Part shown: positions 7,042 to 52,047 of the stretch, piece after piece
How the letters are laid out: every line of letters starts with the position of its first letter
How positions within the stretch are numbered: position 1 is the first letter of the stretch
Notes under the pieces: generated by a model
Database searches by the model: none
What the model saw: only the letters and a program-made list of their open reading frames with translations
Told to the model about the DNA's origin: nothing
Position numbers and translations under genes: made by a program
Assembly (NCBI GenBank): GCA_963727825.1
Contig: CAVSHO010000011.1
Coordinates: 96,001 to 160,000 of the forward strand
Reading direction: 5' to 3'
From: Ignavibacteriota bacterium
GTDB lineage: Bacteria > Bacteroidota > Ignavibacteria > UBA10030
Length of the DNA: 64,000 nt

Positions 7042-7234
7042 TCATATACACGTAACCATTACCTATAGGGTGTATGGTTTTGTGTTTTGTTTAGATATAG
7101 AATCCATTTTTTCTCAAGATTAACTTGCGGAAATTATTATATGGTATTACCTTCTAATCAATAACTAACTAAAACTTTTGACAAAATTGCGTACAAATAA
7201 AAAAGGTGTCCGAAATTATCAGACACCTTACTTG

Positions 7235-7307
7235 TGGACAGGGAGGGAATTGAACCCCCGACACATGGATTTTCAGTCCATTGCTCTACCAACTGAGCTA
7301 CCTGTCC
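7235..7307 (-). tRNA. tRNA-Phe(GAA)
   Basis: Cloverleaf GGACAGG..., anticodon loop CT-GAA-AA, GTTCAATTCC T-arm. Confidence 0.97.
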
Positions 7308-7489
7308 GAAAATTCTGTGACTTAACGAGTAAAGCGAAGTTAAGTCTCTGAAATTTTCAGTATCCCGATGTTATATATCGGAACCTAATCCATCCATTTA
7401 TTTCTCAATAAAAATCCCGCCGGACCTCAGCGGGACCAAATATTTAATTAAAATTACCAGACTTTTTGTTGAAAGTCAAGATTTGATTC

Positions 7490-8632: not shown

Positions 8633-8665
8633 ATCAATATCCTTTTTTTCTAATTGATGTTGCGA

Positions 8666-9511: not shown

Positions 9512-9578
9512 ACCTTAATACACTTTCCTTTGATAAACTGATATTAAAGATATAAGGAATTATCAGAAAAACAATTCT

Positions 9579-11417: not shown

Positions 11418-11431
11418 AATTCATTCTCCAA

Positions 11432-31748: not shown

Positions 31749-32438
31749 CTATATGCTATATTCTGCGATGAAACGATCAACATCGCGGGCATATGAGGAA
31801 GAGGGAAATTCTTTTTTTAGCGTCTGAAGAAGTTCTATAGCTTTTTCTTTCTTCCCAGCCGCCGCAAAGTTTACTGCCGATTTCTGTAAGTTTTCCGGCG
31901 TTTGTATCGTCGTCATATTTTTCGATGCCGCTTTTTCAAAATAGGAAGCCGCATGGCTGAAATCGCCTTTCGCTTCATAACAAGACGCCATTCCTGCATA
32001 GGCTGAGGCAGTAATCATTTTATCCGATACACTGATATCATCGTAGGTGCTCAGAGCTTTGTCATAATTTTTTAACGCGAAGTAGGAATTTGCTAAATAC
32101 AACTTCGCAATTTCACCTGCTTGTGTACTGCCATGCTCATCCACGATGGCTTGCAATCCTTGAGTGCCTTCTTGAGGAACGCCATTGACAGCAAGATCAT
32201 ATCTTCCTTCATCGTAGTATTGCGTTACCTTGGCGAGCATAGCCGTTGCCTTTTCATTTGAATCAGCTCGACTTTTACTCCAGAGAAAACCGACAACTAC
32301 AAGCCCTACAAGCCCGATTCCAACATAAGAAAGAATCTTTGTGTTTTCATCTATCCATTTACGCACTTCGAAGTATTTCGTTACAAGCTTATCTTCTTTG
32401 ATTTCTCTTTTGGAAATTTTTTTCTGTGGTTTAAGCAT
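31749..32438 (-). CDS. Membrane-anchored TPR protein (YfgM-like)
   Basis: Single TM followed by TPR-like helices. Confidence 0.75.
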   Translation of the reverse strand: MLKPQKKISKREIKEDKLVTKYFEVRKWIDENTKILSYVGIGLVGLVVVGFLWSKSRADSNEKATAMLAKVTQYYDEGRYDLAVNGVPQEGTQGLQAIVDEHGSTQAGEIAKLYLANSYFALKNYDKALSTYDDISVSDKMITASAYAGMASCYEAKGDFSHAASYFEKAASKNMTTIQTPENLQKSAVNFAAAGKKEKAIELLQTLKKEFPSSSYARDVDRFIAEYSI

Positions 32439-32476
32439 GTCAATTCCTAAATCAGTTAATAAATTAATTATTTCTG

Positions 32477-32550
32477 TGCGCCCGAGGCGATTCGAACGCC
32501 TGGCCTACAGCTCCGGAGGCTGTCGCTCTATCCAGCTGAGCTACGGGCGC
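32477..32550 (-). tRNA. tRNA-Arg(CCG), intact copy at the distal end of integrated element 1
   Basis: Cloverleaf, ACAGC-CT-CCG-GA-GCTGT anticodon arm. Confidence 0.96.
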
Positions 32551-33099
32551 AAGTTAAAATCCGTTATTTTCTACATTCGCCTTGTTCGAGTTGAGTGAAG
32601 TTTCGTTTTTATTTCACTCTGCAAGTGCTTAAAAAAGTACTCAATCTGCCACGAATAAAAAACGCCGAGCGAAACGAGGCTTCCGGTCTCAAAACACTTG
32701 GCGTTCTACTCTTTCGAGTAAATTTCTTTTTGTTATCTTCGGAAGCATGTTTCTTTAAGTTCGATATTAATATACGAAAAGAGGGAGGAGAATACAAGAG
32801 GGTCTAATTGAGGCAATTGGACTCAGATAATTTCAAAAACTTACCTTTTTGTAACAATTCCTGATTAGAAAATTTCTTAAAACTTAGTTTTCCTCTTTTG
32901 TTTTCAATACTTTTTCAATTTTGTTGCTGCTCAAAATATTTTTTTGTTTTAGCTGTCAAACGCTATTATATGGCTCCCTTTTAGATACTTCTCTGCTGTT
33001 TTCGTACTGTTTTTTGTGATTTTTCGTACTTTTTTTTCACTTTTTCGTACTTTTTTTTCAATGATAATCCATACTCTTTGTTCTCCATTCCTTATTAGG

Positions 33100-33260
33100 A
33101 ACTTTGACATTGACATTGCCTAAGGGAAAACGTGTCTAAGTCAAAGTGGTTAAGGAAAAAAGAGAGAGATAGACAAGAATTGTGTACCTATCTACTATCT
33201 TACTTTGACATTGACATCTTTCTGTATAGGGATTGTCAAAGTGTCGAAGTGTCAAAGTGA
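33100..33260. repeat. Iteron-like repeats (ACTTTGACA/TGTCAAAGT), putative origin of element 1
   Basis: actttgacattgacat at ~33101 and ~33202; gtcaaagtg at ~33140, 33235, 33251; directly downstream of the helicase gene. Confidence 0.65.
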
Positions 33261-34596
33261 GTAATAGCCATTTTTCGTTTTTTTCAATATTCCAGTATCG
33301 TTAGCTTTCTTTAACAATCGGTCAATTGTGCGTTCATTTGTACTCTAATGGCTTGCATCGCTCCTGAATTTCCTTTCGTGAAAGCTCAGTTGCATCACCA
33401 AAGATGCTCTTAAAATCAATGCTTTCTTGTGCTGTCTGTGTTTCCATTGCAATATGTTCTCCTTCGTCTGTTTCACCTTCATCCTTGAACCACAGATTTT
33501 CTGGGTCAAGCGAAAGCAATCTACACTTTCTCATATCATCCGATATATGTCTTCCTTTTAGAGGTTTGATAATCCTTTTTCCCTCATTGGATGACGAACG
33601 TCTGATTTGTAATGTAGTGTCTGCGCTACCACCAAAAACATTGGAGCCTCTCATCTGGTCATTGTGCATACGTTGATATTGTGAACCTTTCTTGGTGTGA
33701 TGAACAATCAACACAGCAAGCCCGTATCTATCCCGTAGAGTCATGAATTGCCTCATCAATGCTTTCATCTGGGAACTGTCATTCTCATTTTTGTTGTCAT
33801 AGGTAAAGTAGAGGCAATCTACCACAATCAAGCAGGGTTTTTCTTGTTGGCAGGTCTCATTCAAGGTCTCCCAGCAATTATCAAGTGCAGGTACTTCTTT
33901 AGGAATAATTATGTTTGAAATATCGCCAAGAGCTGGGAGTCTATCGACCATCTTTTGCAATCTCCGTGCAAAATCAGGGAAAGACAACTCATTATTTAAA
34001 AACAATACTTTGCCATGCTTTTCAATATCGTATGAAAGCCATTGCTTAGCACCTACCGCAATAGAGAGAGCAAGATTCATTGCAAGCAAGCTTTTTCCAC
34101 AACCTTCTTCACCCATCAAGAAATTTACTGACATGTCAGAAATAAGATTTTTAATAAGGAACGATTCTTTTGGTATTTCCATCATGGCAATATCCAGAGC
34201 AGTAAAATTCTCGAATTGGAAACACTGATTGTCTTTTGAGTAGGAAGAATTCAAGAGAGTCGTATTTTTTTCTTCTGATTCAATAGCAATCGGCTTATGA
34301 TTCATCAATCTAATAGCCGCCTCCCTGAACCCTCCATTCAAGGGGACAGCGGTATATGTAATATCATTAATCACGCTTGTTTGCTCTGGAAGATGTTCCA
34401 AGCATGCTTTAATGTCTAAAAGTGTGCTTGGTTTCTTCATTTCATCGTTCAAAGATTCAAACAGTTTTCTGTATTCCGGTAATTCAAAAGCATCACTGTT
34501 AAACCCTTCAGGCAATTCTTCAAATGTAGAGGGCATAAGTAGTAAGGTTGCCAAAACCTGCCGTTCTGCCATTTCTCTCCGTTCCATCACACTCAT
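33252..34596 (-). CDS. RecA/RepA-type AAA_25 helicase; last ~28 codons in another frame after an extra A near 33337
   Basis: Walker A GEEGCGKS, Walker B LIVVD, VHHTKK, RGS; removing one A extends the ORF with NERTIDRLLKKA...GYYSL. Confidence 0.85.
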
Positions 34597-35009
34597 TTGT
34601 GTACCTCAAACAAATCACCTTGACTGTGTAGTTGTTTCTCATAGTCCAAAGATTTCTTTTCCCCCCATAGGTCGAATGGAAGAAATACTTGGGTATCACC
34701 TGACTTTTCATATGTGAACACTTTCCCATAATTAAGGAGATACATTTTTGTTGTGAAGAGTTTCTGACCGCAATACTCGACACAAATCCATTTAAAATCG
34801 AAGCGTTGAAGCAATTCAAGATTCACACCAAGAGAATTGGTCTTCCGGTGCAAGTGTTTCTCCTTTCGTTTACAAAGGAATGTTCCTTCTCCAGCTTTGT
34901 CTAACTTGCCAACATAACGAGTCTCGAATGGTAAACGAAGTTCCACCGTCCAAATGCTCGATAATTTTGTTGGACTCAGGAAAATATTTTGTATATTGAA
35001 TTGTAGCAT
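34593..35009 (-). CDS. Hypothetical protein of element 1
   Basis: Overlaps the helicase start, RBS upstream. Confidence 0.65.
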   Translation of the reverse strand: MLQFNIQNIFLSPTKLSSIWTVELRLPFETRYVGKLDKAGEGTFLCKRKEKHLHRKTNSLGVNLELLQRFDFKWICVEYCGQKLFTTKMYLLNYGKVFTYEKSGDTQVFLPFDLWGEKKSLDYEKQLHSQGDLFEVHK

Positions 35010-35265
35010 AACAAAGTCCTTTCTGGATTTTAACGGGCTGAATCAAGGTCTGAACTTGAACAGCCCGTTTTTGTTACCTCGACGGTAACAAAATAAAAAG
35101 CCAATAATGAGAAGAAGAACCGCCAAGTTCCTTCTCGCTATCGGCTTCAAAAAAGCATTTATTATGTAAGCGGTTCTTTTGCACGCTTACAATTTATATT
35201 AATATAGTTCTATTCTTTAGGAAGAACACTTCCAAAAAAGGGAAGAACGCTTCCCCAATATTCAA

Positions 35266-35877
35266 CTAATCAACAATCGGCTTTGCCTTTCTTTTTTCAT
35301 TTAAGTGTCTTTTGCGATATTGCTTCTCAAAACTATCTCTATTGAAACGATATTTCAGAGCAACTTCATCAAGCGCTGAAGTCTGCTTGTAACTCTTCGT
35401 ACTCACCAAATCATCTACCTCTTCAAAATGCTTAGTTTCAAATTTCAAATTTGCTACTGGTCTATTATGAAGAAGATTTTCCGTCTTTTCTATTCTTTCA
35501 ATAAAGAATTGTCTGAACTGTCTTCCGTCTTCCTCATTCGGAAAGTTTACTATTTCTCCAGCTTTGTTTGCGTGCCGACATTCATCTGCAAGGAATGCAA
35601 CCCCTCTTTCAAAACATTCTTCTGCGACAAAATGCAAATCGTAAATATTCCTAAATACAACGTTTCCATTTTTTTTTATCAAGACTAATGGTTTCGTACT
35701 ATCGACGTTATAAACGTGATAATCGACTTTCAATTTTTTTTTCCATGCTTTTTTTTTATCTAAAGAACGGATAAACCTAATAAGTTCACGACCATGCTCA
35801 TAAAGAATGTCCCAGGTTTTCGCATTAATATCTATTTCTCGAAATTCCTTAATATACTCGTCACTCCATTGTTTCAT
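35266..35877 (-). CDS. Hypothetical protein, possible C-terminal HTH
   Basis: RBS aagga; C-terminal SALDEVALKYRFNRDSFEKQYRK helix pattern. Confidence 0.6.
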   Translation of the reverse strand: MKQWSDEYIKEFREIDINAKTWDILYEHGRELIRFIRSLDKKKAWKKKLKVDYHVYNVDSTKPLVLIKKNGNVVFRNIYDLHFVAEECFERGVAFLADECRHANKAGEIVNFPNEEDGRQFRQFFIERIEKTENLLHNRPVANLKFETKHFEEVDDLVSTKSYKQTSALDEVALKYRFNRDSFEKQYRKRHLNEKRKAKPIVD

Positions 35878-36061
35878 TGCAAATTCCTTTCTTTATTTCC
35901 TTTTACCTTTTTCACCTTATTACAAAAACAGAAAGCCCCAAGCGTCCGGTATAGGCTTCGCCAAAAGCCTTTCTTAACGCTCAGGGCTATCAATCTTCTC
36001 AATGAAGAGAAGTAAATCCTGTATTTTGTGTTGGCGAATTTCTACCGGAGAAAAAAATAAA

Positions 36062-36781
36062 TCAATTTATTTTCTTATAAAGTTTTGAATCAATTACATC
36101 TGCGTTCAACCAACCAAAATCAGTATATTTAGTGGCAGATTCAGAATAATCAGTACGCTTAAAGTATGTATCATATCGGTTCCAATTCTTAATCCATCCA
36201 TGTAATTCTATTTTTGCTTCATTAAATTCGTTAGCACATAGAGTGTTTATAAGAGATAATTCATTCCTTCCGTTATACTTTTTGATTATCATTCTTGCTG
36301 TATCAGGATTCGTAGTAAAGTTATAAAGTTGGAATGCTTGAAGAATTTTTTCTCGTCTATCTTGATTTTCGTAAGATAAGGTTGATTCATTTGAATAATT
36401 GTTCGATAAATAATTATCCATATCAAATAGATAAGATTCATTGTTTAATGCAAATTCCAAAAGATAGTTGAGTCTGCGTATTTCATTCACATAAATTCTC
36501 CTAAGAGAATCTTGTCCATATTTTTCAAAGTAGATTAATTTTTGTTCTAACGAATCAATAAAATATCCTCCACGATGTGCTTCTGTAACCATAAAACGCT
36601 TTTGTGTCAATTGATTCTCATATATATCTCCAACATCAACTTTCTGAAACCATGTGATATTTTCATACAGCCATTGACCACCTTGTATCGCAAGTGAGAT
36701 GCAATATGCGATTGCAACCATACCGAGGAAGGAGAATATTAATATTTTTGCTTCCCTCATGTTCATCTTACTAAATGTCAT
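36062..36781 (-). CDS. Hypothetical membrane-anchored protein
   Basis: N-terminal TM, AT-rich ORF. Confidence 0.6.
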   Translation of the reverse strand: MTFSKMNMREAKILIFSFLGMVAIAYCISLAIQGGQWLYENITWFQKVDVGDIYENQLTQKRFMVTEAHRGGYFIDSLEQKLIYFEKYGQDSLRRIYVNEIRRLNYLLEFALNNESYLFDMDNYLSNNYSNESTLSYENQDRREKILQAFQLYNFTTNPDTARMIIKKYNGRNELSLINTLCANEFNEAKIELHGWIKNWNRYDTYFKRTDYSESATKYTDFGWLNADVIDSKLYKKIN

Positions 36782-36809
36782 TTTCCCATTTTTGAGACAG
36801 CTTGTATTT

Positions 36810-37163
36810 CTAAAACCATCTGGTCACTAAAACACCGCTTGAATCATAGGTCATAGAGTTAGGCGTTATGCTAACATTAAATATTGTTGAAGAAGTACCA
36901 CCAGATTGTAGCGTGCCAACTTTCCACCCTATCATTGGGGTGGCATTCCATAATATATATATATTTGTAATTGGTATCGAAGCATTGTTTTTTACTAACC
37001 AGATATGTGCGCTTCCATCCAGCTTGGTTACCGTATCTCCTATACATGTAACTGTAATCGAGTAACCTGTTGTTGGCTTTTGCGCGTTAGTCTGCTCTAC
37101 TGGATTGCTCTTTTTACATCCAAGCAATAGTATTAATGGAATTACTAAATATAGGTGTTTCAT
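36810..37163 (-). CDS. Hypothetical lipoprotein
   Basis: Lipobox LLGC followed by KKSNPV. Confidence 0.7.
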   Translation of the reverse strand: MKHLYLVIPLILLLGCKKSNPVEQTNAQKPTTGYSITVTCIGDTVTKLDGSAHIWLVKNNASIPITNIYILWNATPMIGWKVGTLQSGGTSSTIFNVSITPNSMTYDSSGVLVTRWF

Positions 37164-37325
37164 AATATCTCTTAAAAATTAATGGTTCTGTATGTGGAAT
37201 TATACATATATATCTAAGAAAATCAATTAAACCCTCTTCAAATCACGTCACATTCTTCTATTAAGAAATAGAAAGCCGACCTCTTTGGGTCGCCTTGAAG
37301 CCTTAGCAATATTGCATTTGTCTTA

Positions 37326-38528
37326 CTATCTCAACAAAATCAGTTTTTTCGTTTCTGTAAATGAACAAGCTTGCAGACGATAGAAGTAGATACCACTCGA
37401 CATATTTGCAGCATTCCATTGACGCGAATAACTTCCTGCCGACATTTCTTCTGAGACGATAGTTGCAATTTCTCTTCCCATAATATCAAACACCTTCAAC
37501 GAGACAAAAGATTTTGATGGAAGATTAAATGAAATAGTTGTTGTAGGATTAAACGGGTTTGGATAGTTCTGGTCAAGACTGAAATGTGTCGGTAAGTCGG
37601 TGGAGAACCTCTCTACTGAGGTCATCTCTAACAACGGTCGTCTCCAAACGCCGAATAAATCAGTCCCAGCAAAGAGATTCGTGCCGCTTACGACAAGAGA
37701 CATGACACCATTGTAAGTAAGTCCTTGAGACTCCCAATTCCAGCTTGTGCCGTTATTAGTCGAAAGAAAGACGGCGTCGCCACCACAAGTCCCAGCAAAT
37801 AGATTTGTACCGGAGACAGCAAAAGCAGTGACAGGAAGAAGTTCCAATCTAAAACCGTTATTGACCGCAGTCCAGCTTGTGCCGTTGTTGGAAGAACGAT
37901 ACACACCACCATCGGTTCCTGCAAAGATATACGTGCTGGAGTTGGCAAGAACACGGACAGTCAAATTATTCAAACCAGTATTAACCGCAGTCCAACTCGT
38001 TCCGTTGTTAGTGGAAAGAAAGACGCCACCATTATTAGTCCCTGCAAAGAGATTCGTGCCGCTTACGGCAAGAGCATAGACAGTAGCATTAATTGTTCCG
38101 ACTTTAGTCCAGCTTGTGCCGTTGTTGGTGGAAAGGAAGACACCGCTACCTGCAGCAAAGAAATTTGAACCGGAAACGGCAAAACTCTGAACTCCATAAC
38201 CGTTTGGAATCCCATTGTTCACAGCGTTCCAACTTGTGCCATTGTTAGTGGAAAGAAAGACGCCACCGCCACCAGTCGCAGCAAAGAGTTTCGTGTCAAT
38301 AACGGCAAAAGCAAAAACGTTCGTTAATCCATCATTAATCCAGCTTGTACCGTTGTTGGTGGAAAGAAAGACGCCGTCGCCATAAGTCCCAGCAAATAGA
38401 TTTGTACCGGAGACGGCAAAAGCAGTGACATAAGTATTCGTGGAGACATGAATCCATTGGGAAAACGAAATATTCGGATTGATAAAGATAGCAAGTAGTA
38501 ACCAATAATGTCTTATTGAATTTTTCAT
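37326..38528 (-). CDS. T9SS-secreted BNR/Asp-box repeat protein
   Basis: Signal peptide, repeated GVFLSTNNGTSW, C-terminal QNYPNPFNP sorting domain. Confidence 0.9.
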   Translation of the reverse strand: MKNSIRHYWLLLAIFINPNISFSQWIHVSTNTYVTAFAVSGTNLFAGTYGDGVFLSTNNGTSWINDGLTNVFAFAVIDTKLFAATGGGGVFLSTNNGTSWNAVNNGIPNGYGVQSFAVSGSNFFAAGSGVFLSTNNGTSWTKVGTINATVYALAVSGTNLFAGTNNGGVFLSTNNGTSWTAVNTGLNNLTVRVLANSSTYIFAGTDGGVYRSSNNGTSWTAVNNGFRLELLPVTAFAVSGTNLFAGTCGGDAVFLSTNNGTSWNWESQGLTYNGVMSLVVSGTNLFAGTDLFGVWRRPLLEMTSVERFSTDLPTHFSLDQNYPNPFNPTTTISFNLPSKSFVSLKVFDIMGREIATIVSEEMSAGSYSRQWNAANMSSGIYFYRLQACSFTETKKLILLR

Positions 38529-38840
38529 ACGAAAGCTCCTTGCTATTATTGGTAAGAAGGCTGATAGGCATTTGTATTTTACTAAATACCAAAAATACAA
38601 GCAACTACTTTCAAGAGTGTACTTTTACAAAAAAAATATGAGTTATACACTTTCCGTATGAGGTGTATATTTATAGGCTTTACCCCTTGCTTATTAAAAT
38701 CTGGAGAGTTCTTTAACCCCTCCCCCTATTTTTTCAACTATATGCCGTTTAAAACATACCGCCTTTGGGGTTCGACGCTTTTCACTACTCACCCCAGTTA
38801 TTGCCATTATCTTTCCAAATTTGCATTAAGACTGACTTTC

Positions 38841-39927
38841 TCAGTTCATAGATACCGAAATCTTGTTCACCTCAGCATGTAGGCTCTCAGTCTGTAAATG
38901 GCTGTATATCTGAGTTGTTTTTACGTCTGAGTGTCCAAGCAAGTCTTTAATCACATATACAGAAGTACCATCCTGAGCAAGCCACGAAGCAAACGAGTGC
39001 CGGAGTGAATGAAAATGTATATCCTGATTGCTGAGGTTCGCAAGTCTCACATAGCGCTTGAACAAGTGTGTAATCCAATCGGCAAAGATTTGCTTGCCGT
39101 TCATTGTGAACACATAGCCGGAAGCATCTTTACCTTGTTTTGCTTGCAGAATGTAGAGAGCGGTATCGCTCAATGGTATTATTCTCATTCTACCGGCTTT
39201 TGTGCGAAAGGTTGGAGTGCTTTCGATGTATAGCAACTTCCGGCTGAGGTCAATACTATTCCATTTCAGGTTCACTAATTCCCCTCTACGTAGTCCGGTG
39301 CTCACAGCAAAGATAATGATTTCCTTCAACCAGCTTTCTTCAATCACACCTAACAATTTTTGAAATTCAAGTTTCGTGAGGAATGTCGGTTTATTCTCCG
39401 GTACCTTCACCAGTTGAATTTTGAATGGATTGCTTTCGAGTAGCTTCCACCTTACGGCTGTATTGAAGAAAGCCCTCAGCGTTCGGAGTTCGATATTTAC
39501 AGTTACCGGCCTCACAATTTTCTCTATCTCTGTTTTGTGTCCATCTTTAATCATTATTACCACCTTGACAGGCTTTTGTCTCTCTGTTTTGTATGCATCA
39601 AAATGCTGAGGTGTATAATTGGCAAGCGGAAAGTCTCCGATGTATTCTATAAAATTCCGGAGAGATGCCTTGTAGATTGCTACAGTGCCTTTAGAGAAGC
39701 TTCCTTCAGCATAGGCAAGGAAAGGTGCTGAGAAATTCAGATAAGAGCATATGCTTGGCTTTCTGCCTTCGTTCGTATTCATCACTTTTGAAAGTTTGAA
39801 GGAACTTGAGAGCATCGGTTTTGTATTGGCAATGAGTGGAAACCCGTTTCCTTTTCCCTTGTTCATTGAAATAGAAAAGGTAATACGTGCCATTGGAATG
39901 TTTGGAGAGGAACATCGGAAGCCCCAT
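38841..39927 (-). pseudogene. Tyrosine integrase of element 1, with a +1 frameshift near 39722
   Basis: STGLRRGEL, HFHSLRHSFASW, LGHS..TTQIY; its N-terminus (39706..39927) matches the intact paralog at 60610; the indel may be a sequencing error. Confidence 0.85.
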
Positions 39928-40005
39928 TTTCTGAGGCAGAAGGTGCTTAAATAAGTACTTACGAAGAAAAGAAATGCAGAAATTGAAATGCTTTGAAGGA
40001 AATTT

Positions 40006-40060
40006 ACGCCTGGCCTACAGCTCCGGAGGCTGTCGCTCTATCCAGCTGAGCTACGGGCGC
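40006..40060 (-). pseudogene. 5' fragment of tRNA-Arg(CCG) (att site)
   Basis: Identical to the first 55 nt of the tRNA at 32477-32550; ends at the first T of the T-loop. Confidence 0.93.
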
Positions 40061-40126
40061 AAGAATGCTGGTTCACTAATCTAATGTATTGAAGTTTTTA
40101 AAGAGATTCAAATGATAGGCAAATCC

Positions 40127-40237
40127 TGTAGTGTCTCAATTTAATATTACTGGCGATTGATGTCAGGAGTTTCCTCCTGACATCCAACAGGATCGGTCAG
40201 GACGTAAGTCCTGACCGCACGAAACTGAGACACTACC
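40127..40237. mobile_element. 111-bp MITE with (G)GTAGTGTCTCA terminal inverted repeats and two internal REP-like hairpins
   Basis: TSD gcaaatcc at 40119-40126 and 40238-40245; hairpins gatgtcagga..tcctgacatc and cggtcagga..tcctgaccg. Confidence 0.85.
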
Positions 40238-40323
40238 GCAAATCCTGTTTGTTGTCTTCGTGGATTCCTATCAGAACAATCTCTGCTATTTTGTTTCCTG
40301 ATACTCTTACAACGCATAAGAGA

Positions 40324-41349
40324 TTATTTGCACATATCCAAAGTATCCTGAGAGACATGATAACCAAGTTCTGTCACTTTCAAGAAGTCTCTTATGGCAT
40401 CACTCTTTTGGTTAACTATCAAGTATGTTCGTCCTCTACCATAGTATGCATCTATATAATCCGGCTTTAGCTCAATTGCATGGGTAAAATCGGTATTGGC
40501 TCCCTGATAATCTTTAAGGTCAGACTTTGCTATCCCTCTGCTGTTGTAGGCCTCTGCGTAATTCGGTTTCAGCTCGATCGCATATGTGAACCCGGCAATT
40601 GCTCCCTGATAGTCGTTAAGCTTATATTTTGTGCGCCCATTATTAAAGTGTGCGTCTAGATAATCCGGTTTCAGCTTGACTGCTTCTGTGTAATCGCTAA
40701 CTGCGCCCTGATAGTCGTTAAGCTGAAACTTTGCGTTCCCCCTATTATTATACGCGTATGCATTATCCGGGCTTAGTGCAATTAATTCCGTGAAATCTGC
40801 AATCGCGCCTTGATAATCTTTAAGTTCAATCTTTGCTTTCCCTTTGTCAAGGTAAGCATGCAAATTCTCTGGGTTCAACTTGATTGTTTCGATGTAGTCA
40901 GCAATAGCTCCTTGATAATCTTTAAGTACGAACTTTGCATGTGCCATATTATAGTAAGCGAATACATCGTCTGGTTTTAAACCGACTGCTTTTACGAAAT
41001 CAGCAATCGCTCCTTGATAATCTTTAAGTACAGATTTTGCATATCCCCTGTTGTCGTAAGCTTCTACATAATCCGGTTTCAGTTTGATTGTCTCGGTGTA
41101 GTCGGCAATTGTTCCTTGATAGTCATTAAGGCTTGCCTTTGCTTGCGCTCTGCCGTAGAAGGCGTCGGCATAATCCGGTTTTAGATTAATCGCCTCGGTG
41201 AAATCGGCAATTGCTCCCTTATAGTCATTAAGTTCATATTTCTTGTTTGCACTCCCAAACCAATCGGTTGCACTATTCTTTGTCTGAGATAAAGATATGG
41301 CTTGGAGACATGAAACCATTAAGACAAAAACAATCATCTGCTTCTTCAT
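40324..41349 (-). CDS. Secreted tetratricopeptide repeat protein
   Basis: Signal peptide and about nine 34-aa repeats DYQGAIADF..AI.LKPDY..AY..RG. Confidence 0.93.
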   Translation of the reverse strand: MKKQMIVFVLMVSCLQAISLSQTKNSATDWFGSANKKYELNDYKGAIADFTEAINLKPDYADAFYGRAQAKASLNDYQGTIADYTETIKLKPDYVEAYDNRGYAKSVLKDYQGAIADFVKAVGLKPDDVFAYYNMAHAKFVLKDYQGAIADYIETIKLNPENLHAYLDKGKAKIELKDYQGAIADFTELIALSPDNAYAYNNRGNAKFQLNDYQGAVSDYTEAVKLKPDYLDAHFNNGRTKYKLNDYQGAIAGFTYAIELKPNYAEAYNSRGIAKSDLKDYQGANTDFTHAIELKPDYIDAYYGRGRTYLIVNQKSDAIRDFLKVTELGYHVSQDTLDMCK

Positions 41350-41531
41350 TTTTATCCTTTCGTTAATTTAATATTTCCTATTGCCACTAAGAAAAGGTGC
41401 CTTTTTCAATTAGTATTCCTTTTCTCTTTGCTTCTTAATTAGAAATGTTAACAATTCATCATATGATTGTCAACATACTTGAAAATTGGGTAGTGGTGTC
41501 TTTTCGATTTTTTTAAAGTTAGGTAAAATTT

Positions 41532-41780
41532 ATGGATAAAAATAAAAAATTAATGTTTCAAATGAGTGTTGCAATGCCCAAGGCTGAAGCTTTGAGTTTT
41601 GGCAGAACTATGCCCAAAGGTGACAAATACTATATTTACAAGACCAAAGAGAACCCAAGGGCAAGGGACGCGTTTCGGCGGGAAAGCTGGGTATTACTTA
41701 GAGATTTACAAAAAGGCGAAATTGTGACGAGTGGGAGCGCGTTATTTGCAGATAAAAGACAATTACGGACGGTGTCTTAA
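41532..41780 (+). CDS. Hypothetical passenger protein
   Basis: ORF with aggt RBS just inside the left TIR. Confidence 0.5.
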   Translation: MDKNKKLMFQMSVAMPKAEALSFGRTMPKGDKYYIYKTKENPRARDAFRRESWVLLRDLQKGEIVTSGSALFADKRQLRTVS

Positions 41781-41791
41781 TTTGAATCATA

Positions 41792-42538
41792 TTATAATCC
41801 TTTTTGTTGCCGTCTTTTTGCTTTTATTTTTACTTCTTCGGAGATTTGTACGCGAGTATCAGGCGCATTTTTAATTAGCTCAATATTTAGCTCGAATATT
41901 AATTCGTCAATGAGACGCTTTGGATTCCAACGATTAAGTGCTTTGTTAATAATAAAATTACTTAAGTCAAGCTCCGGAGATAATTTTTCTGCTATATATT
42001 CAGATAATTCTTTCTCATCGTTTGGGCTGATTTTTTGAATATTAGCGATGCGTTTTTTACACCAATCCAAAATAAATGGATTAAATATTTTACAGGGTAA
42101 TAGTAGCTCCGAGCCAACTCTTTTTGCTGCCCTCTCGAATATTTGATGTGTTTCTTCGTTTAAAAAGTTCTCATATTTGATTCTGTCTTCTATTGAATTA
42201 ATGCCTTCAAATATCGAAGAATGAATAATTGAATGTCCTACTTCTTCGGCTATCGTAAATTGAGCAGATTTGTTTGACATTATATAGTGGTTTGCATCAA
42301 TAAATATTTCTATCCGATTTTCCTTTAGATTTTTAAAACCAATCCCGTACAAACCAAACAATTGAAGATCGTCTATAATATTAATAGGAATTCGAGCGCG
42401 TTGGGATACAATTTCAATGTTTATTACGGGAACGTTTGGAAGAGTTAGCCACCCATGACTATCTAAAAAAGCTTCTGCGATCTCCCTACAATGCACATAT
42501 GTATAATTTATGGAGCGACAACTTTCAATACCGTTCAT
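41792..42538 (-). CDS. ImmA/IrrE-like metallopeptidase (DUF955)
   Basis: VPVINIE, QFTIAEEVGH (HExxH-like), FE..A...SELLLP; coupled to an XRE gene. Confidence 0.78.
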   Translation of the reverse strand: MNGIESCRSINYTYVHCREIAEAFLDSHGWLTLPNVPVINIEIVSQRARIPINIIDDLQLFGLYGIGFKNLKENRIEIFIDANHYIMSNKSAQFTIAEEVGHSIIHSSIFEGINSIEDRIKYENFLNEETHQIFERAAKRVGSELLLPCKIFNPFILDWCKKRIANIQKISPNDEKELSEYIAEKLSPELDLSNFIINKALNRWNPKRLIDELIFELNIELIKNAPDTRVQISEEVKIKAKRRQQKGL

Positions 42539-42884
42539 TTATAAATGCTGTTACCTTCCGAATCTGTTCTTCTGTCATTTTTTTATTTGCCACTGTACGT
42601 AACAAAAGCGGAATTCCCACAATGTCTTTTATGTCTTTTGCAATATCTTTAGGAAATTGTTCGTTGTCTATAGATGCTTGATCCGCTAAGTTCTTTTTTT
42701 CTTCTATAGTCGCACCTATTCCGTCATTAATCGCATTTATCAATTCCGATTTTTGCGGTGGCGGGATCGTACATCTTTCAACCCGCGAAAGATATGCAAC
42801 GTCTATATCGCTATTATTTGCAAGTTCTCTTAGTGTTATTCCCTTTTGCGTGCGCAATTCGCGCAACATCTCACCATATTTCAT
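42525..42884 (-). CDS. XRE-family HTH transcriptional regulator
   Basis: GEMLRELR..KGITLRELA....VAYLSRVER...PP. Confidence 0.9.
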   Translation of the reverse strand: MKYGEMLRELRTQKGITLRELANNSDIDVAYLSRVERCTIPPPQKSELINAINDGIGATIEEKKNLADQASIDNEQFPKDIAKDIKDIVGIPLLLRTVANKKMTEEQIRKVTAFINERY

Positions 42885-42972
42885 GGCGCCTTCTCCTCAT
42901 GAATGACCTTGTTGTAGTATTACTACAACATAGACAAAGGACGCCATATTGTCAAGAAAAATCCGAGCGTAC

Positions 42973-43473
42973 TTATTCTATCTTTTCCGTATCAACAACG
43001 GTTTTCTCAACTTCTCCACCGTTATTCTTTTTTTCTCGTTCTTTAACCTTATCTGGATAGCGTTCAGCAAGTCCATAGGCTTTTCCATCTTGAGTATCAA
43101 ACTGTACAAACTCTCTGTTTGAACCTAAATAAATAGCCATGTTTTTCAAACTATGTTTTGCTTTCCATGTAGACGGAAATTGAAAATCTCCCTTAGTCAA
43201 TCCGTCCAAGATTTCTTGAGCCGTAGAAGCCCGTCCAGTTTTGCGTAAGAATTCCTTTGTTGAGTCTAACATTGATTTACCGACGAATTCTCTTGGTGGC
43301 GGCTCATATTTACCAATACTGCTATTTGACTGCTCAACATCGATAAATTCCGGTGGTAATCCATTTAAAGCCATAAGTTGATTAATGGCTTTTTTAATTT
43401 CCACTTGACGAACGTCCAAGTTGAGTAATTCGTTGTGTAGTGAATCAATCGCTTTATCTAATTCGTTTGGCAT
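42973..43473 (-). CDS. Hypothetical protein, N-terminal coiled coil plus probable winged-helix
   Basis: ggagg RBS; FLRKTGR..TAQEILDGL..G pattern. Confidence 0.6.
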   Translation of the reverse strand: MPNELDKAIDSLHNELLNLDVRQVEIKKAINQLMALNGLPPEFIDVEQSNSSIGKYEPPPREFVGKSMLDSTKEFLRKTGRASTAQEILDGLTKGDFQFPSTWKAKHSLKNMAIYLGSNREFVQFDTQDGKAYGLAERYPDKVKEREKKNNGGEVEKTVVDTEKIE

Positions 43474-43939
43474 ATATCCTCCGTTTATGTTAAATACACT
43501 ATACGAAATATTTTATTATCTGTCAAGTACTATTTTCTATTATTTTTTATCTTGCCGATATGATAAAAATATTTTCGTTAACCTATTGACAAGATAACAA
43601 GAATATGTTATCTTGTAGTTGTGATGAGCAACGAAAAGATAAATAAAAACCCGCTACCGATTGCAGTCGATATACGGGTATAATAAACGAATTGCACAAA
43701 CTTTTTAAAGAAGAAAGGAGGTCAATGTGGTAACAATTTGGAGCGAGAGAATGCTTACCTTTGCCGGATTCATTTTCTGCGCTCGTGCTATAATATAGTA
43801 CAACCCGCTTTTAAGGCGGGTCTGCAAGTGCTACTAACACATGCAAACCCTAAATCAATGCCCGCGTGAACGGACAAAGACCCTATTTCAATATACGTTC
43901 ATTGCGGGAAAAAATCAAGATCAAACTTGGAGTACCACA

Positions 43940-44773
43940 ATGAACACTTTATCCCTCGAAAAGAAAATCTTAATCCTTAATTCCCTCATTGAAGGAAACT
44001 CAATCCGTTCTACAGAACGACTTACGGGCGTAACTAAAAAAGCAATTTTAAAATTACTTATTAAAGCCGGAGAGCAAGCAAAAGAAATCCTTGACACTCA
44101 GTTAGTAGGCATTCAATCAAGATTTGTACAGGTAGATGAAATTTGGACGTATGTAGGAAAGAAACAAAGACAACTTAGAGAAAATGATTCAAAAGAATTA
44201 GGCGATCAATATGTATTTGTAGCAATGGACGCAGAAACTAAACTTGTTCCTGCTTACAAAGTAGGAAAGCGAACGATTGAAACTACGCGCTCATTCATTA
44301 AAGATTTACAGTACAGAATAATCGCACGCTTTCAACTCTCTACCGATTCATTCAAGCCGTATTTTAATGTTGTAGATGAAATTTTCGGAACTGATATTGA
44401 CTACGGACAGATTCACAAAGAGTATAAAGAAGATGGAAAGGGCGAAAAGCGATATAGTCCGGCTCAGATAATACGTGTAATAATAAATCCCTTAATCGGA
44501 AGTCCAAGTATTAAACATATCTCAACAAGTTTTATCGAACGACAGAACTTAACAATGAGAATGCAAATGAGAAGATTCACGCGGCTTACAAATGCTTTCT
44601 CAAAGAAGTTAAGAAACCTTGAAAGTGCCGTTGCATTACATTTTTATCATTACAACTTTATGCGTATTCATCAATCATTGAGAGTAACACCTGCAATGCA
44701 AGCAAATGTAACTCATAGATTGTGGACATGGGAAGATTTATTATTCAGCACACAGATGGAAAAAGTTGCGTAA
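43940..44773 (+). CDS. IS1-family DDE transposase
   Basis: N-terminal HTH (EGNSIRSTERLTGV), VQVDEIWTYVGKK, LSTD, STSFIERQNLTMR..RRFTR.TNAFSKK. Confidence 0.9.
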   Translation: MNTLSLEKKILILNSLIEGNSIRSTERLTGVTKKAILKLLIKAGEQAKEILDTQLVGIQSRFVQVDEIWTYVGKKQRQLRENDSKELGDQYVFVAMDAETKLVPAYKVGKRTIETTRSFIKDLQYRIIARFQLSTDSFKPYFNVVDEIFGTDIDYGQIHKEYKEDGKGEKRYSPAQIIRVIINPLIGSPSIKHISTSFIERQNLTMRMQMRRFTRLTNAFSKKLRNLESAVALHFYHYNFMRIHQSLRVTPAMQANVTHRLWTWEDLLFSTQMEKVA

Positions 44774-44963
44774 CAAAACTACACAGAGGTCTCTATTGCG
44801 TTCGTGTCCGTGTGTCATTAAATTTGTAGCGTGGAAACATACTTCATATATTTATTAATACTTGGTTTTATTTATTTGGTTATAGATCACCTAAGACTGA
44901 AAAAGAAAGTATTGTTTTTTATCCGCTCAACAAATGTTTGCGGTGATGCGGTTCGTAAATATA

Positions 44964-45197
44964 TTAGGGATGATGCATGCTTGCCTTTAGAAGGGCGGCA
45001 AGATTAGCTTGATGTTTCAAGAAAGAATCGTTCACCCGTTTTGCTGCTTCTTTTCCGGTAAGGCGATATTCTTTAACGAGAAGGGGAATAATTTCATCAT
45101 AAAGAGCGAGGGCAAGTGCGTGTATATCATTAATGCCATAAATAATATTAGACTTTTCCTCGTCAGCAGTCTTTTTCATGCTCATAATTATCCTCAT
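44964..45197 (-). CDS. Hypothetical passenger protein
   Basis: Short ORF inside the right TIR. Confidence 0.4.
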   Translation of the reverse strand: MRIIMSMKKTADEEKSNIIYGINDIHALALALYDEIIPLLVKEYRLTGKEAAKRVNDSFLKHQANLAALLKASMHHP

Positions 45198-45494
45198 ATA
45201 AATAGTTGTTGCATTGGTGGGTTATTAACAGCGAAAGAAACCTAAAGAATCTATGAATCATAGTCAAGATAGAAATAGTTCCCAAAACATAGAGAGAACA
45301 AATCAAGATGGAGTCGAAAAGACCCCACTACCGAAAATTGCTTTTAAATCATGCGTCAATCACTCATATCTATATTTTATGCAACGATCTTAATTTGATA
45401 AGGCAGCGGAAAGCGTCATCCGGAACAATCCAACAAGTGAATAAGTAGCGAAACGAAGTTTTTGAAGCAATTCAATTAGTTTTAGAAAATAAAA

Positions 45495-46545
45495 TTAAAT
45501 CTTTTCGCTCTCTAAGATTGACTTAACCTTGCTCACGACAATTTCCGGTGTAATCGATAGCATACATTCAAACGTTTTTATAGGACAGACATCGCCGCCA
45601 TGGATTGAACACGGACGACATTTAAGCCCTTTCATTTCTACCACAACATCACGGCGTCCGCGAGGTGCGAAACCAAATTCCGGGACAGTTGCCCCAAAGA
45701 TTGCAACAACTGGAGTTCCCACTGCAACTGCAAGGTGCATCGGAGCACTGTCGTTTGAGATCAATACTCTGCAGCGACGAATCAACTCAGCAGACTGAAG
45801 CAGTGATAACTTGCCTGCAATATTAAAAACATTTTTTGTCTGTGCAATCTCCATAACTTCCTTGCACAATATTTCATCTTCTTTTCCGCCAACAAGAACG
45901 ACAGCAATGCTTTCCGAAGTAATTTGTTTGCATACGGCAGCGAATCTGTCTGCAGACCAGCGCTTGGTATTCCAGATCGTGCCAGGAGCTACTGCAACAA
46001 TATTCTTATATCGATTCAATACATAATCATTTATAATCGAATCGATAATTTGCTTATCCTGATTTGAAGGATAAAGCCAAGGCAGGCTGGTCGTAACAGT
46101 AGGAAGTTTCAAGGGACTCAGCAACGAAAGGTTTCGTTCAATTTCGTGAGACGAAGGATTATAGCGCACATTTTTCTTGAACAACAAACGTCCAGCGCTT
46201 TTATCGAACCCAATACTGATTGTTGGTTTCAACAACCAAGTTAATAGCGCGCTTCGTAAAGATCGATGAGGAACAATAACCAAATTATAATTCTGTAATC
46301 TGAGTTTTGTCCTCATCCGCCATAAACCTTTTATTCCTTTATCGCTTCCGCGTTTATCATACTGAATTATTTTGGAGATGGCGGGATGATTTTCAAATAT
46401 TTCCGCTGTTCTGGGAACTACAATTATATCAATCGAAGATTGTGGATAATTTAATTTAAGTGTCATGGATAAGAGGCAGTGTTAGAATTGCGTCACCAAT
46501 GAATGCTGTCTGAATAACTAAGATTTTATTAAATAACTCAGCCAC
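45495..46545 (-). CDS. waaF: LPS heptosyltransferase II (GT9); N-terminus out of frame near 46470-46485
   Basis: KILVIQTAFIGD in an upstream frame; TKRW, SNDSAPMHLA, CRPCSIHG. Confidence 0.85.
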
Positions 46546-47450
46546 TACAACGCCTCCACTCGATCCGGGACATGCTTCCACCGTTTATGCATCCACATCC
46601 ATTGTTCCGGGAATTGTCTTATAATTTGCTCGGTCATATGAACTTGTCGTTGAGTCAGTTCAAGAACATTTTTATCCGAGAAACCAACTAAGTCATCACT
46701 CGATACATATTCCAAGTGCATTTTATAATTTCCATCTTTCTGTCGCACGGCGCATCCTATGACAATCGGTGCACCTGTCTTTAAGCAGAAAACAGCCGGA
46801 CCTTCAAAGGTGGGCACTTGCCGGCCAAAAAATTCTACTGCGATACTTTCTTTCGGAGCTGTTTGATCAGCTACGAGCGCAATAATTCCTCCCTGATGAA
46901 GTGTCCGTATAATTTCACGAACACTCATTCCCATTGACACTACTCTAACTCCGAATAATTCACGCCACTGATTTATGAGACGATCAACAAGTGCATTTGA
47001 TTGAGACTTTGCAATTGCACATACTGGCTCATTAGTATATACTGAGATCGCATGAGCCGACAGCTCCCAACTGCCGAAATGGGCAGTGACAAAAACAATA
47101 CCCTTCTTTCTCTTCAGAAATTCCGTTAATACATCAAGATTATCAATGCTAACTCTTTGCTCGATTATTTCCTTTGTATAATTCGGCGACCAGAGTAATT
47201 CAACAAATGTCGCAGTGATATTTTGGAATGATTGAAGAGCAATTTGCTCCAGTCTTTTTTTATCCATTTCTGGAAATGCGTTGCGAAGATTTCTGAGTGC
47301 TACTTCTCTACGCGATTTCAATATCGGATATGCTAATCGGGCAAGTGCAAAGCCGGTCTTGTGAACAAGTTGTAACGGCAGTAATCTGACAACAAAACCG
47401 AGGCATTGGAAAAAGATATATTCAATAACGTACACTTTTTTTATAGGCAT
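46545..47450 (-). CDS. Lipid A late acyltransferase (LpxL/HtrB family)
   Basis: TAHFGSWE, ADQ, FFG, PEQWMWMHKRWK. Confidence 0.92.
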   Translation of the reverse strand: MPIKKVYVIEYIFFQCLGFVVRLLPLQLVHKTGFALARLAYPILKSRREVALRNLRNAFPEMDKKRLEQIALQSFQNITATFVELLWSPNYTKEIIEQRVSIDNLDVLTEFLKRKKGIVFVTAHFGSWELSAHAISVYTNEPVCAIAKSQSNALVDRLINQWRELFGVRVVSMGMSVREIIRTLHQGGIIALVADQTAPKESIAVEFFGRQVPTFEGPAVFCLKTGAPIVIGCAVRQKDGNYKMHLEYVSSDDLVGFSDKNVLELTQRQVHMTEQIIRQFPEQWMWMHKRWKHVPDRVEAL

Positions 47451-47499
47451 AACATTTTAATTAATTTTGTTCGACTAATGGTTATTCGTTTTTATCGAA

Positions 47500-47913
47500 T
47501 CATTCGCCCATTACTTTAACGATTACGCGTTTCCGCCGCTGGCCATCAAACTCGGCGTAATAGATTTGCTGCCATGGCCCGAAATCTAATTTTCCGTCTG
47601 TTACAGGAACAATTACTTCATGATGAATAAGGAGGCTTTTCAAATGCGAATCGCCATTCGATTCTCCTGTACGATGGTGATTGTATTCTTGATTAAATGG
47701 TGCGAGCTTTTCCAACCACGTATCAATATCTTGAATTAATCCTGATTCCGCATCGTTTACATAGACACCAGCTGTAATATGCATTGCCGATACGAGAATC
47801 ATTCCTTCTTTAATTCTACTCTTTGCAAGAATTTGTTCCACTTCAGAGGTTATGTTAATATACTCGCGGTGTTTTTTTGTGTTGAACCAGAGATATTCTG
47901 TGAAAGATTTCAT
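47500..47913 (-). CDS. YjbQ family protein
   Basis: [27 protein letters not shown]. Confidence 0.92.
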
Positions 47914-47915
47914 AA

Positions 47916-49295
47916 TTATTCCTTTTCAGAAAACGGTTCCAGAGCCAGAAAGTCTAAAGGCAATATGGTTACGTTCAAACGCGAATTTTTGACTCTTATG
48001 ACGACACCTGAGAATTGATCCTGCCATATTTCAGATGCATCAACTGGCATCTGAATTTCCACTTCTTTCTTCTCATGAGCAAAGTTGACGATAATTAGAA
48101 CAGAGTCATTATCTGAAGAACGTAAGAAAGAAAATAGATAAGAGCTATCAGAATTCTTTACATTGCGATACGAACCATACTGCAATGCCGGATGGTTCCG
48201 GCGAAGTGTACATAAATATCCATATAATTTGCTGGATGAATTAAATTGTTTATTATTTTCAACTCCATTGTCATTGTAGAAAAGGGGTATACCCGGAAGA
48301 GTGAAGGCAAGAATTGAAATTGCTTTTTCCCCCTGCAAATTGGACTTCTCAATGCTCGCAGTATCTTCAATATATTCTCTATATTGTATGTTGCTGCGCA
48401 GGTGCAACGATCCTTTGGGGAATTTCAGGGATTCAGTGTTTAAAGAATCATTGATTATCGAAGCAGAAAGCTTACCATCGATGATGTCCGCAAATGCATT
48501 ATTTATATTCCATGAACAGGTTAGATCAAATGCCTTGATGTGGTGCTCTGGTCGCATACTTTCTGAAATCATAAGTACTGGCTTGATTTTGTCTAATTCG
48601 CATCGAGCAACATCCCAGAAGTCTGTTGGTATCAATTCCGCCGATCTGCACTGTAAACCATCTATGCCAATTTCCTGAATCCAGAATTTCATCATCGCAA
48701 TCATATACTTGCGTAACTCATGTTGATTGTAGTCTAGCTGCGCAACATCGTTCCTTTCAGAATTTGGTGCAACAATCGCGCCTTCTTCATTATGAACAAA
48801 CCAGTCAGGATGTTCCATCAAAAGCTGACTATCCCAAGCGGCTTGATTGGTAACAAGATTGATAATGATTTTCAATCCTTGTTGATGGGTTGTGTTAACT
48901 AACGATTTAAAATCTTCAAGTGTGCCAAATTCTGAGTTGACCGCATAAAAATCTTTTACAGCATCAGGGCTTCCAATTTCTCCACTCCTATTCAACTCAC
49001 CAATAGGGTGAATCGGCATCAGTGAGACAACGGTAATACCGAGCTTCTTTAATTCAGGAATTTGTGCTTCAAACGCTTTAAATGTTCCACCATTGGAAAA
49101 CGAATGAAGATCGACTTCATAAATGATCGCATTCTTTACCCAGTCTGCACTTAGGCGTGCGTCCAGTTCACTGAATTTCTTTTTCGTGCATCCAAAATAA
49201 GAAATTGAACTGCACACAAATACAATAATAATTGTGCTAAATAAAAATTTTTTATCCACAAAGACTTTTTTTATTCTTCTTAAATTAAAGCCCAT
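47916..49295 (-). CDS. GH13 alpha-amylase-like protein with degenerate catalytic motifs
   Basis: [20 protein letters not shown] present; conserved regions II and IV altered. Confidence 0.8.
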
Positions 49296-49352
49296 CTCAA
49301 AAATGATTATGAGTCAGTCTGACAGCAAGGATTATTTTAAGATAGCTTATAG

Positions 49353-51584: not shown

Positions 51585-51759
51585 TATAAATACCTTGATT
51601 GAAGAATAACTTCTTTACATAATAAATAAGAACATCTCCAATTTCAATAACTGATAGGAAAATAGGAATGGCTAACTAAAATGAGCTATGTGTATCAATA
51701 GAAAAAGGCGTCGAGTTCTTCTTTCCCGACGCCTTTATTTTTACATTCAAAAACTATTA

Positions 51760-52047
51760 TTAATGTTGAGCAAGGACAGCTTCTTTTGCAGCCTTCGCAA
51801 CACGGAACTTTACAACTGTTTTTGCAGGAATATTTATTTGCGCTCCAGTAGCTGGATTGCGTCCGATACGGGCTTTACGATCAACCAGAACCAATTTACC
51901 GATACCTGGTAAAGTAAAAGAGTTTTTTGCTTCCCGATACGCTAAAGCTGCAATCTCTTCTAATATCCCCACTGCATCTTTCTTCTTCAACTCAAACTTG
52001 CTTGCAAGATGAGCTGCAATCTGGCTTTTCGTCATTGCTTTTCCCAT
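51760..52047 (-). CDS. HU family DNA-binding protein
   Basis: RKARIGRNPATG..INIPAK.VVKFR; terminator hairpin at ~51702-51740. Confidence 0.95.
   Translation of the reverse strand: MGKAMTKSQIAAHLASKFELKKKDAVGILEEIAALAYREAKNSFTLPGIGKLVLVDRKARIGRNPATGAQINIPAKTVVKFRVAKAAKEAVLAQH

Follow-up and report, generated by a model that had tools for sequence, protein, structure and literature searches.

What becomes of a bacterial tRNA gene when an integrative element takes over its 5′ part, and with it the side on which its promoter lies? The question is raised by a tRNA-Arg(CCG) gene in a 64,000-nt stretch of DNA from an Ignavibacteriota bacterium (GCA_963727825.1, contig CAVSHO010000011.1, positions 96,001 to 160,000, forward strand; hereafter the window). 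In this stretch a direct repeat of the first 55 nt of the tRNA brackets a segment that carries a tyrosine integrase gene. We consider it probable that the segment is an integrative element that replaces the 5′ part of the tRNA gene, that two promoters change partners when it integrates, and that the tRNA then depends on element DNA. The locus was compared with 17 others (given L numbers below), which were found by scanning genome contigs with the exact 55-nt tRNA part and all come from metagenome-assembled genomes (MAGs) of Ignavibacteriota/Bacteroidota.

Replacement of the 5′ part of tRNA-Arg(CCG)

The intact tRNA-Arg(CCG) gene lies at 32476-32550 on the minus strand. It was called by ARAGORN and scores 67.3 bits in Rfam. 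A repeat search identified two copies of a 58-nt direct repeat, 100% identical and spaced 7,510 nt apart, at 32496-32553 and 40006-40063. On the minus strand each copy consists of three upstream bases (CTT) and tRNA nt 1-55, and it covers the acceptor 5′ strand, the D arm, the anticodon arm, the variable loop, the 5′ strand of the T-stem and the first T of the T-loop. The copy at 32496-32553 (attR) forms the 5′ part of the intact gene and would be supplied by the element up to the crossover; the copy at 40006-40063 (attL) is a displaced 5′ fragment that would be of host origin up to the crossover. Rfam scores this fragment as a partial tRNA (34 bits, against almost twice that for the full gene), and ARAGORN makes no tRNA call on it. 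Across 32300-40400, Rfam matched only the tRNA and its fragment and found nothing in the leader or the arms. A preliminary description of this DNA had placed the 55-nt tRNA-Arg fragment behind a TTGAAT-17-TACATT sequence and ahead of a co-oriented integrase, with the complete tRNA about 7.5 kb downstream, and we found all of these parts at the positions claimed.

The segment between the repeats is 7,452 bp long (32554-40005), would form a circle of 7,510 bp, and has all of its genes on the minus strand. The last 20 nt of the tRNA and the flank downstream of it are host DNA. An exact 58-nt repeat that flanks an integrase-bearing segment absent from relatives is far beyond chance. The codon read by this tRNA is in use, with CGG making up 12.6% of Arg codons in 26 long open reading frames (ORFs).

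Seven of the 17 loci (L003, L007, L008, L010, L014, L015 and L016) are empty sites, in which a native promoter block stands directly before a full tRNA that is followed by the same downstream TPR gene as in the window. The tRNAs of L007 and L008 carry one substitution, in the 3′ part. Synteny downstream of the tRNA is shared by the window with these seven loci and with an eighth, L002. The closest relative, L015, matches 41480-40242 of the window at 87% and 40127-40006 at 97%, and its alignment then passes straight from 40006 into 32553-32023 at 91%; it also shares the upstream gene. No homologue of the element's integrase or helicase was found in any of the 17 loci. Because of these empty sites, we assign 32554-40005 to an insertion, and the flank upstream of the fragment (40064 onward) to the native upstream region of the tRNA. 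The flank now upstream of the intact tRNA differs from the native upstream region of the seven relatives. The alternative that the sequence upstream of 32550 is native chromosome does not hold in seven of the eight related loci, and the state of the eighth, L002, is derived according to a protein tree described below.

Direct repeats of tRNA-gene DNA (tDNA) thus bracket the element, one of them completes the intact tRNA, and relatives retain a precise empty site. What has been displaced is the 5′ part, now found upstream of the intact gene, and the element provides the new 5′ part, which is the arrangement of reversed tDNA integration. Judged by these genome comparisons, it is the 5′ part of the tRNA gene that the element replaces, and the intact gene is composed of a 5′ part from the element and the last 20 nt from the host. 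The seven empty sites and the native flank upstream of the fragment confirm the 5′ replacement that had been proposed for this locus. An explanation by a chance repeat or by replicative partial duplication of the tRNA, unrelated to site-specific recombination, is scarcely credible: beyond the existence of the repeat nothing speaks for it, whereas an integrase gene adjoins one copy, the two copies agree at all 58 nt, seven relatives lack precisely this segment, and a matching motif is present on both arms.

How the exchange of 5′ parts might proceed can be read from the limits of the repeat. The attP site would carry the first 55 nt of tRNA-Arg(CCG) with the three upstream bases and would recombine with the chromosomal tRNA gene. 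The crossover would most likely fall in the anticodon loop, with the 7-nt loop as the overlap region and the stem and its flank as core sites. The distal end of the repeat lies 16 nt past the anticodon loop. The anticodon loop is favoured because the T-loop is outside the block and because the block ends about where a core site would end. We rejected a T-loop crossover, as the block of identity includes only the first base of that loop.

Two further loci, L001 and L005, come from one MAG (JACVXU01) and are short contigs that each end at this tRNA, with one mismatch in 70 nt upstream. They suggest that the assembly broke off at a tRNA locus that is repeated or varies between strains, and are possibly another occupied site.

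Two candidate promoters and their partners

The candidate native promoter of tRNA-Arg(CCG), TTGAAT-17-TACATT, lies at 40083-40111 on the minus strand, 22 nt before the displaced fragment. It belongs to a 31-nt block, ATTTGAATCTCTTyrAAAACTTnnnTACATT, in which 26 of the 31 positions are invariant across eight sequences (the window and the seven empty sites). The flanks are unconserved, with one invariant position in the 47 columns that precede the block and one between the block and the tRNA. In seven of the eight sequences 19-22 nt separate the end of the block from the tRNA; in L014 the distance is 51 nt, with about 30 extra bases between the two (stored ~10056-10110). Comparison of the eight sequences identifies this block as a real conserved element, in keeping with its earlier description as promoter-like. 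The window's tRNA genes for Ala and Asp are preceded at similar distances by TTGACT-17-TATATT and TTGAAA-17-TATATT, which makes a sigma-70-like reading of the block reasonable. Promoters of the Bacteroidota type have the form TTTG / TAnnTTTG. This type was tried for the block and rejected, as conservation does not extend to the G of the -7 motif and sigma-70-like hexamers precede the other tRNA genes of the window.

Upstream of this promoter, between it and the TPR gene that precedes it, the minus strand has two perfect short hairpins at 40150-40215, ggtcaggacttacgtcctgacc and gtcaggaggaaactcctgac. These may be either a palindromic element that is repeated or terminators that lack a T-run.

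The tyrosine integrase gene (38841-39927, minus strand; PF00589, E 2.5e-35) follows the fragment in the same orientation and starts either 78 nt (ATG 39927) or 90 nt (ATG 39915) after it, the latter being the start in most homologues. We scanned for promoters with generic sigma-70 hexamers, retaining sites that scored at least 8 of 12, and found none between the native promoter and the integrase start. No terminator-like site was found on the minus strand from 40083 to 39894, and the transcript predicted to run from the native promoter towards the integrase has no unusual degree of structure (z +1.44). With neither a terminator, nor another promoter-like site, nor unusual structure in the interval, read-through from the tRNA promoter into the integrase appears plausible.

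On the element side, a second candidate promoter, TTGTAT-17-TATATT, is present at 32797-32769 on the minus strand, where the preliminary description had placed it, about 218 nt before the intact tRNA. Only one other site within 300 nt upstream of the tRNA reaches 8/12. A counterpart is found in L002, where the full tRNA stands behind about 230 nt homologous to the element end, the homology starting at about 32780-32800. There TTGCCT-17-TATATT lies 216 nt before the tRNA. The -10 hexamer with the bases that follow it and the TTG of the -35 are identical to those of the window, and 10 of the 17 spacer positions are shared. A BLAST comparison of the two gives 83% over a 1,034-nt match that extends from 32779 through the tRNA and the downstream gene. 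The last 100 nt before the tRNA are the best conserved part of the element end, with 17-20 of 20 positions shared per 20-nt window. The case for both promoters rests on conservation in other genomes and not on the hexamer match.

We propose that integration would exchange the partners of these two promoters. In the excised circle the element promoter would be joined to the leader, the 58-nt core and the integrase in one uninterrupted, co-oriented series. After integration the host tRNA promoter would face a dead 55-nt fragment and then the integrase. The element promoter would thus drive the integrase in the circle and the tRNA once integrated, and the host promoter would take over the integrase. 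This exchange follows from the geometry, provided that these are the active promoters, and the arrangement of the locus fits it. The host would then depend on element DNA to express a tRNA whose codon it uses, and such dependence would favour keeping the promoter-to-tRNA end while the rest of the element decays, an expectation with which L002 agrees. The locus offers a concrete pair of promoters with which to ask whether integration rewires the expression of both the integrase and the tRNA.

Several points weigh against this account. The crossover point is not mappable, the repeats being identical, and a crossover in the D-loop, as in the Klebsiella arg2 islands, is a possible alternative to one in the anticodon loop. 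Both promoter candidates match only 8/12, and such sites occur at chance level (24 in the region, with 23.0 +/- 4.1 expected). Conservation of the element promoter is known from one further sequence, L002, and the BLAST homology with that sequence begins inside the promoter spacer, at 32779, which leaves chance as a possible source of the shared TTG in the -35. The leader of about 210-215 nt before the tRNA folds without significant structure (z -1.69). L002 may carry a large island that extends past the 10 kb examined, and the integrase of the window, whose reading frame is broken, may leave this copy immobile.

The geometry could also be as described without any functional exchange of promoters, the integrase having its own unrecognised promoter or being silent, and the tRNA being transcribed from another start, either by read-through from the helicase gene or the origin region or from a non-consensus promoter near the gene. 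That hexamer matches are no more frequent than chance favours such a reading. So does the position of the best-conserved 100 nt, which are nearest to the tRNA and could hide a promoter missed by a consensus scan, and the minus strand shows no terminator-like site from the helicase gene to the tRNA. We nevertheless regard it as rather improbable. Neither the 215 nt nearest to the tRNA nor the 78-112 nt that precede the integrase contain a site scoring 8/12 or better, L002 has kept the same promoter-to-tRNA stretch without a helicase gene, and the element promoter shares its -10, TATATT, with the window's Ala and Asp tRNA promoters.

Whether the element could still move depends on the integrase. 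Its catalytic residues are readable as an RKHRHY type, with R in GLRRGE, K in FRTKAG, HxxR in HSLRHS and H...Y in GHSDVKTTQIYSH. The frame, however, is broken near 39718-39722, a frameshift that the preliminary description missed: the N-terminal 60-odd codons are in an ORF at 39706-39927 and the rest is at 38841-39893, whereas all six aligned homologues (66-81% identity, 356-361 amino acids (aa)) read LLSEFLxxFLSYAEGSFS in one frame across the break. In our search for integrase relatives, 1879 of 2852 candidate proteins matched at E<=1e-3. The best relative outside the window has 88% identity; tblastn searches of phage and plasmid collections returned only distant matches (<=31% identity). The N-terminal extensions of seven longer homologues gave no usable hint of an upstream tRNA fragment.

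If the frameshift is real, the locus would be a dead, fixed remnant that no longer excises. The break at a point where six of six homologues read through speaks for this, as does the presence of the window integrase in the protein collection only as a truncated call of 313 aa (P0001). An assembly error is an equally possible source of the frameshift, because a conserved host gene, GT9 (~46468), also looks frameshifted, as would be expected from assembly indels. The displaced host promoter differs from the promoter of L015 by one base, at a variable position, and together with the identity of the 58-nt repeats this points to a recent insertion. We therefore think a dead remnant possible but on the whole unlikely, and retain the reading of a recently integrated element. 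The frameshift in GT9 (heptosyltransferase) lies at ~46465-46472, where the L016 homologue aligns in different frames, with residues 1-39 in one and residues 37-359 in another; it reflects either a pseudogene or an assembly indel.

Integration on the 5′ side of a tRNA gene with loss of the original promoter is already in print, for the archaeal elements pTN3/TKV4, for rare bacterial cases and for the Klebsiella arg2 islands. A review of archaeal recombinases states that recombinant tRNA genes of bacteria keep their original promoter "with very few exceptions" (PMC8371274), and a survey of Thaumarchaeota, citing Zhao and Williams 2002 and four archaeal papers, describes 5′-distal recombination as considerably less frequent (PMC6563490). 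Cossu et al. describe, in an S2 legend, a rebuilt tRNA separated from its original promoter (PMC5495485), and a Klebsiella survey describes islands at the 5′ end of arg2 (bioRxiv 10.1101/2020.11.02.365908). Given three of these sources (PMC8371274, PMC5495485 and the Klebsiella survey), the novelty that the preliminary description implied for 5′ replacement was overstated.

The closest parallel is with pTN3/TKV4 of the Thermococcales, in which attB is the 5′ half of a tRNA and the rebuilt tRNA is cut off from its original promoter, as those elements are described in print; this is the same exchange of promoter partners that we propose here. Those elements, however, encode SSV-type "suicidal" integrases with attP inside the int ORF, and the gene is split on integration. 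In the window the core ends at 40006 and the integrase ORF starts at 39927 or 39915, leaving the whole gene on one side. The hosts also differ, being archaea with archaeal promoters in the one case and an Ignavibacteriota-like bacterium in the other. The arg2 islands of Klebsiella pneumoniae (integrase clade I.d) likewise use the 5′ end of an Arg tRNA, with the island upstream of the gene, and in this they differ from all other islands of that survey (bioRxiv 10.1101/2020.11.02.365908). Their site, as given there, comprises the 5′ acceptor strand and the stem and loop of the D arm, whereas the block in the window reaches through the anticodon arm to the T-stem, and the host belongs to a different phylum.

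With classical anticodon-loop islands and phages (the classes of Williams 2002) the element shares a tyrosine integrase, a tDNA block with the symmetric anticodon stem-loop, an integrase gene beside the att core and a tRNA gene that is restored after integration. In the classical case, as reviewed, the block reaches the 3′ end and the tRNA keeps its promoter (PMC8371274); here it reaches the 5′ end and the promoter would be exchanged. The window element is the mirror image of that class. It provides a clean bacterial example of tRNA 5′-half replacement with empty sites, in a phylum for which few descriptions of mobile elements exist. Island finders and annotators that look for 3′ fragments on the downstream side of a tRNA can overlook such elements or set their bounds wrongly; the filters of Islander, as published, admit 5′ fragments upstream of the tDNA (PMC4383910).

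A possibly retained element end and a proposed promoter turnover

Is the end of the element that carries the tRNA promoter protected from loss? L002 bears on this question. We built a tree from two downstream proteins with 13 rows, omitting loci without either protein at the set length, L015 among them. L002 falls inside a clade of five rows with a Shimodaira-Hasegawa-like approximate likelihood ratio test (SH-aLRT) support of 100, in which the other members L003, L010 and L016 carry the native promoter. The outgroups L008, L014 and L007 also carry it, and the state of L002 is therefore derived. Searches upstream in L002 covered the 10 kb before its tRNA and detected no integrase, helicase, 5′ fragment or native promoter block. 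Over the 2.8 kb beyond the shared stretch (oriented 7000-9800), word-7 blastn and tblastx detected no further remnant of the element. The upstream genes in L002 encode GH53, MFS, GH42 and lacto-N-biose phosphorylase. L002 lacks the ancestral upstream order of GH57, amylase-like, UPF0047, lipid A acyltransferase and GT9, which is found in nine loci and at 45501-52047 of the window. The GH53 gene of L002 is split into two ORFs.

Two histories could have led to this state. The stretch shared with the window could be the attP-proximal module of a different, larger island, with the galactan and lacto-N-biose genes as its cargo and its integrase end more than 10 kb upstream. The upstream genes of L002 have no counterpart in the window or the other 16 loci, they replace the ancestral gene order, and their G+C is 40.5%, compared with 37.1% downstream. 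Furthermore, about 28 kb of the contig (CAWHXW010000005.1) lies upstream beyond the stretch examined. On the other side, a scan with the 55-mer, which a mismatched copy would escape, found only one exact copy on the L002 contig (196,865 nt) and none elsewhere in the genome. We take the larger island to be a serious possibility, somewhat short of an even one. As no second exact copy of the 55-mer is present, the comparison leans toward L002 as the site of a decayed element that has lost all but its promoter-to-tRNA end. For the protection of that end by dependence of the tRNA, the support from L002 is suggestive.

A more far-reaching idea is that elements integrating on the 5′ side hold tRNA expression hostage and thereby drive turnover of tRNA promoters, the element end being kept and the displaced host promoter decaying. 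If this is true, a tRNA that the host needs is left with the element's integrase promoter as its sole promoter. We offer this tentatively, and think it less probable than not. L002 and a decayed promoter copy in the window provide natural comparisons on the stabilisation of element ends and the replacement of host promoters over time.

The decayed copy is a tRNA promoter block directly behind GT9, at about 45436-45475 in the window and at about 1830-1880 (stored) in L015. Its -35 and spacer are recognisable and its -10 is lost, at the site where L016 has a working promoter and the tRNA. Its local alignment score exceeds 200 of 200 shuffles in both the window and L015, and does not do so in L003, L014 or L007. 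The decayed block is now separated from the tRNA by a TPR gene (40324-41349) and an intact copy of the promoter. This arrangement suggests earlier remodelling of the 5′ side of the tRNA in the common ancestor of the window and L015, and the decayed block could be the trace of an earlier round of insertion.

Element genes, arm motifs and neighbouring insertions

We compared the element proteins with Pfam and PHROGs. All of the element genes are on the minus strand. A RepA/DnaB-like helicase with AAA_25 and DnaB N-terminal domains is encoded at 33334-34596 (PF13481, 7e-30; PF00772, 9.7e-06; PHROGs primase/helicase families) and is likely the replication protein of the element. The cargo includes a BNR/Asp-box repeat protein with a type IX secretion C-terminal sorting domain at 37326-38600 (PF18962, 2.2e-11; PF02012; PF15902). 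Four ORFs within 34593-37163 (36810-37163, 36062-36781, 35266-35877 and 34593-35009) gave no Pfam or PHROGs match at the thresholds used.

Iteron-like repeats at 32999-33264, within a non-coding stretch of about 780 nt, form a candidate origin or binding-site region. They comprise three copies of TTTTCGTACTnTTTTTT spaced 21-22 nt apart and several copies of ACTTTGACA / TGTCAAAGT. Each arm also carries one copy of a palindrome-like 17-nt motif, AGTACTTnTTTAAGCAC, of which 32400-40200 contains exactly two copies when both strands are searched with up to 3 mismatches allowed. The copy on the integrase-side arm, AGTACTTATTTAAGCAC (39943-39959, minus strand), is a candidate arm-type site 46 nt beyond the core; the copy on the tRNA-side arm, AGTACTTTTTTAAGCAC (32625-32641, minus strand), lies about 71 nt before the core. 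Words of the form AAAAAGTAC, related to this motif, occur five times in the 64 kb against 0.76 expected, three of them within 32632-33055. The AGTACTTnTTTAAGCAC copies and AAAAAGTAC words are candidate arm-type protein-binding sites.

A second insertion of 3,955 bp lies at 41481-45435 and is absent from L015, with a clean junction. It contains an M78/IrrE-like peptidase with an XRE HTH partner (41792-42538 and 42525-42884), an IS1-like DDE transposase ORF (43841-44773, plus strand) and an ORF of 166 aa. The gap that separates GT9 from the tRNA promoter is an insertion hot spot, with different genes in different loci. It is without an insert in L016, L010 and L008. In L003 it contains a 247-aa gene on the opposite strand, in L007 a 1108-aa gene and in L014 a 227-aa gene; L015 and the window both have the 341-aa TPR gene there.

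L002 has BNR / type IX secretion paralogues with up to 47% aa identity to the cargo protein, inserted between the downstream TPR gene and the SpoIIE/GAF gene (oriented 11212-13435; stored 10546-12199).

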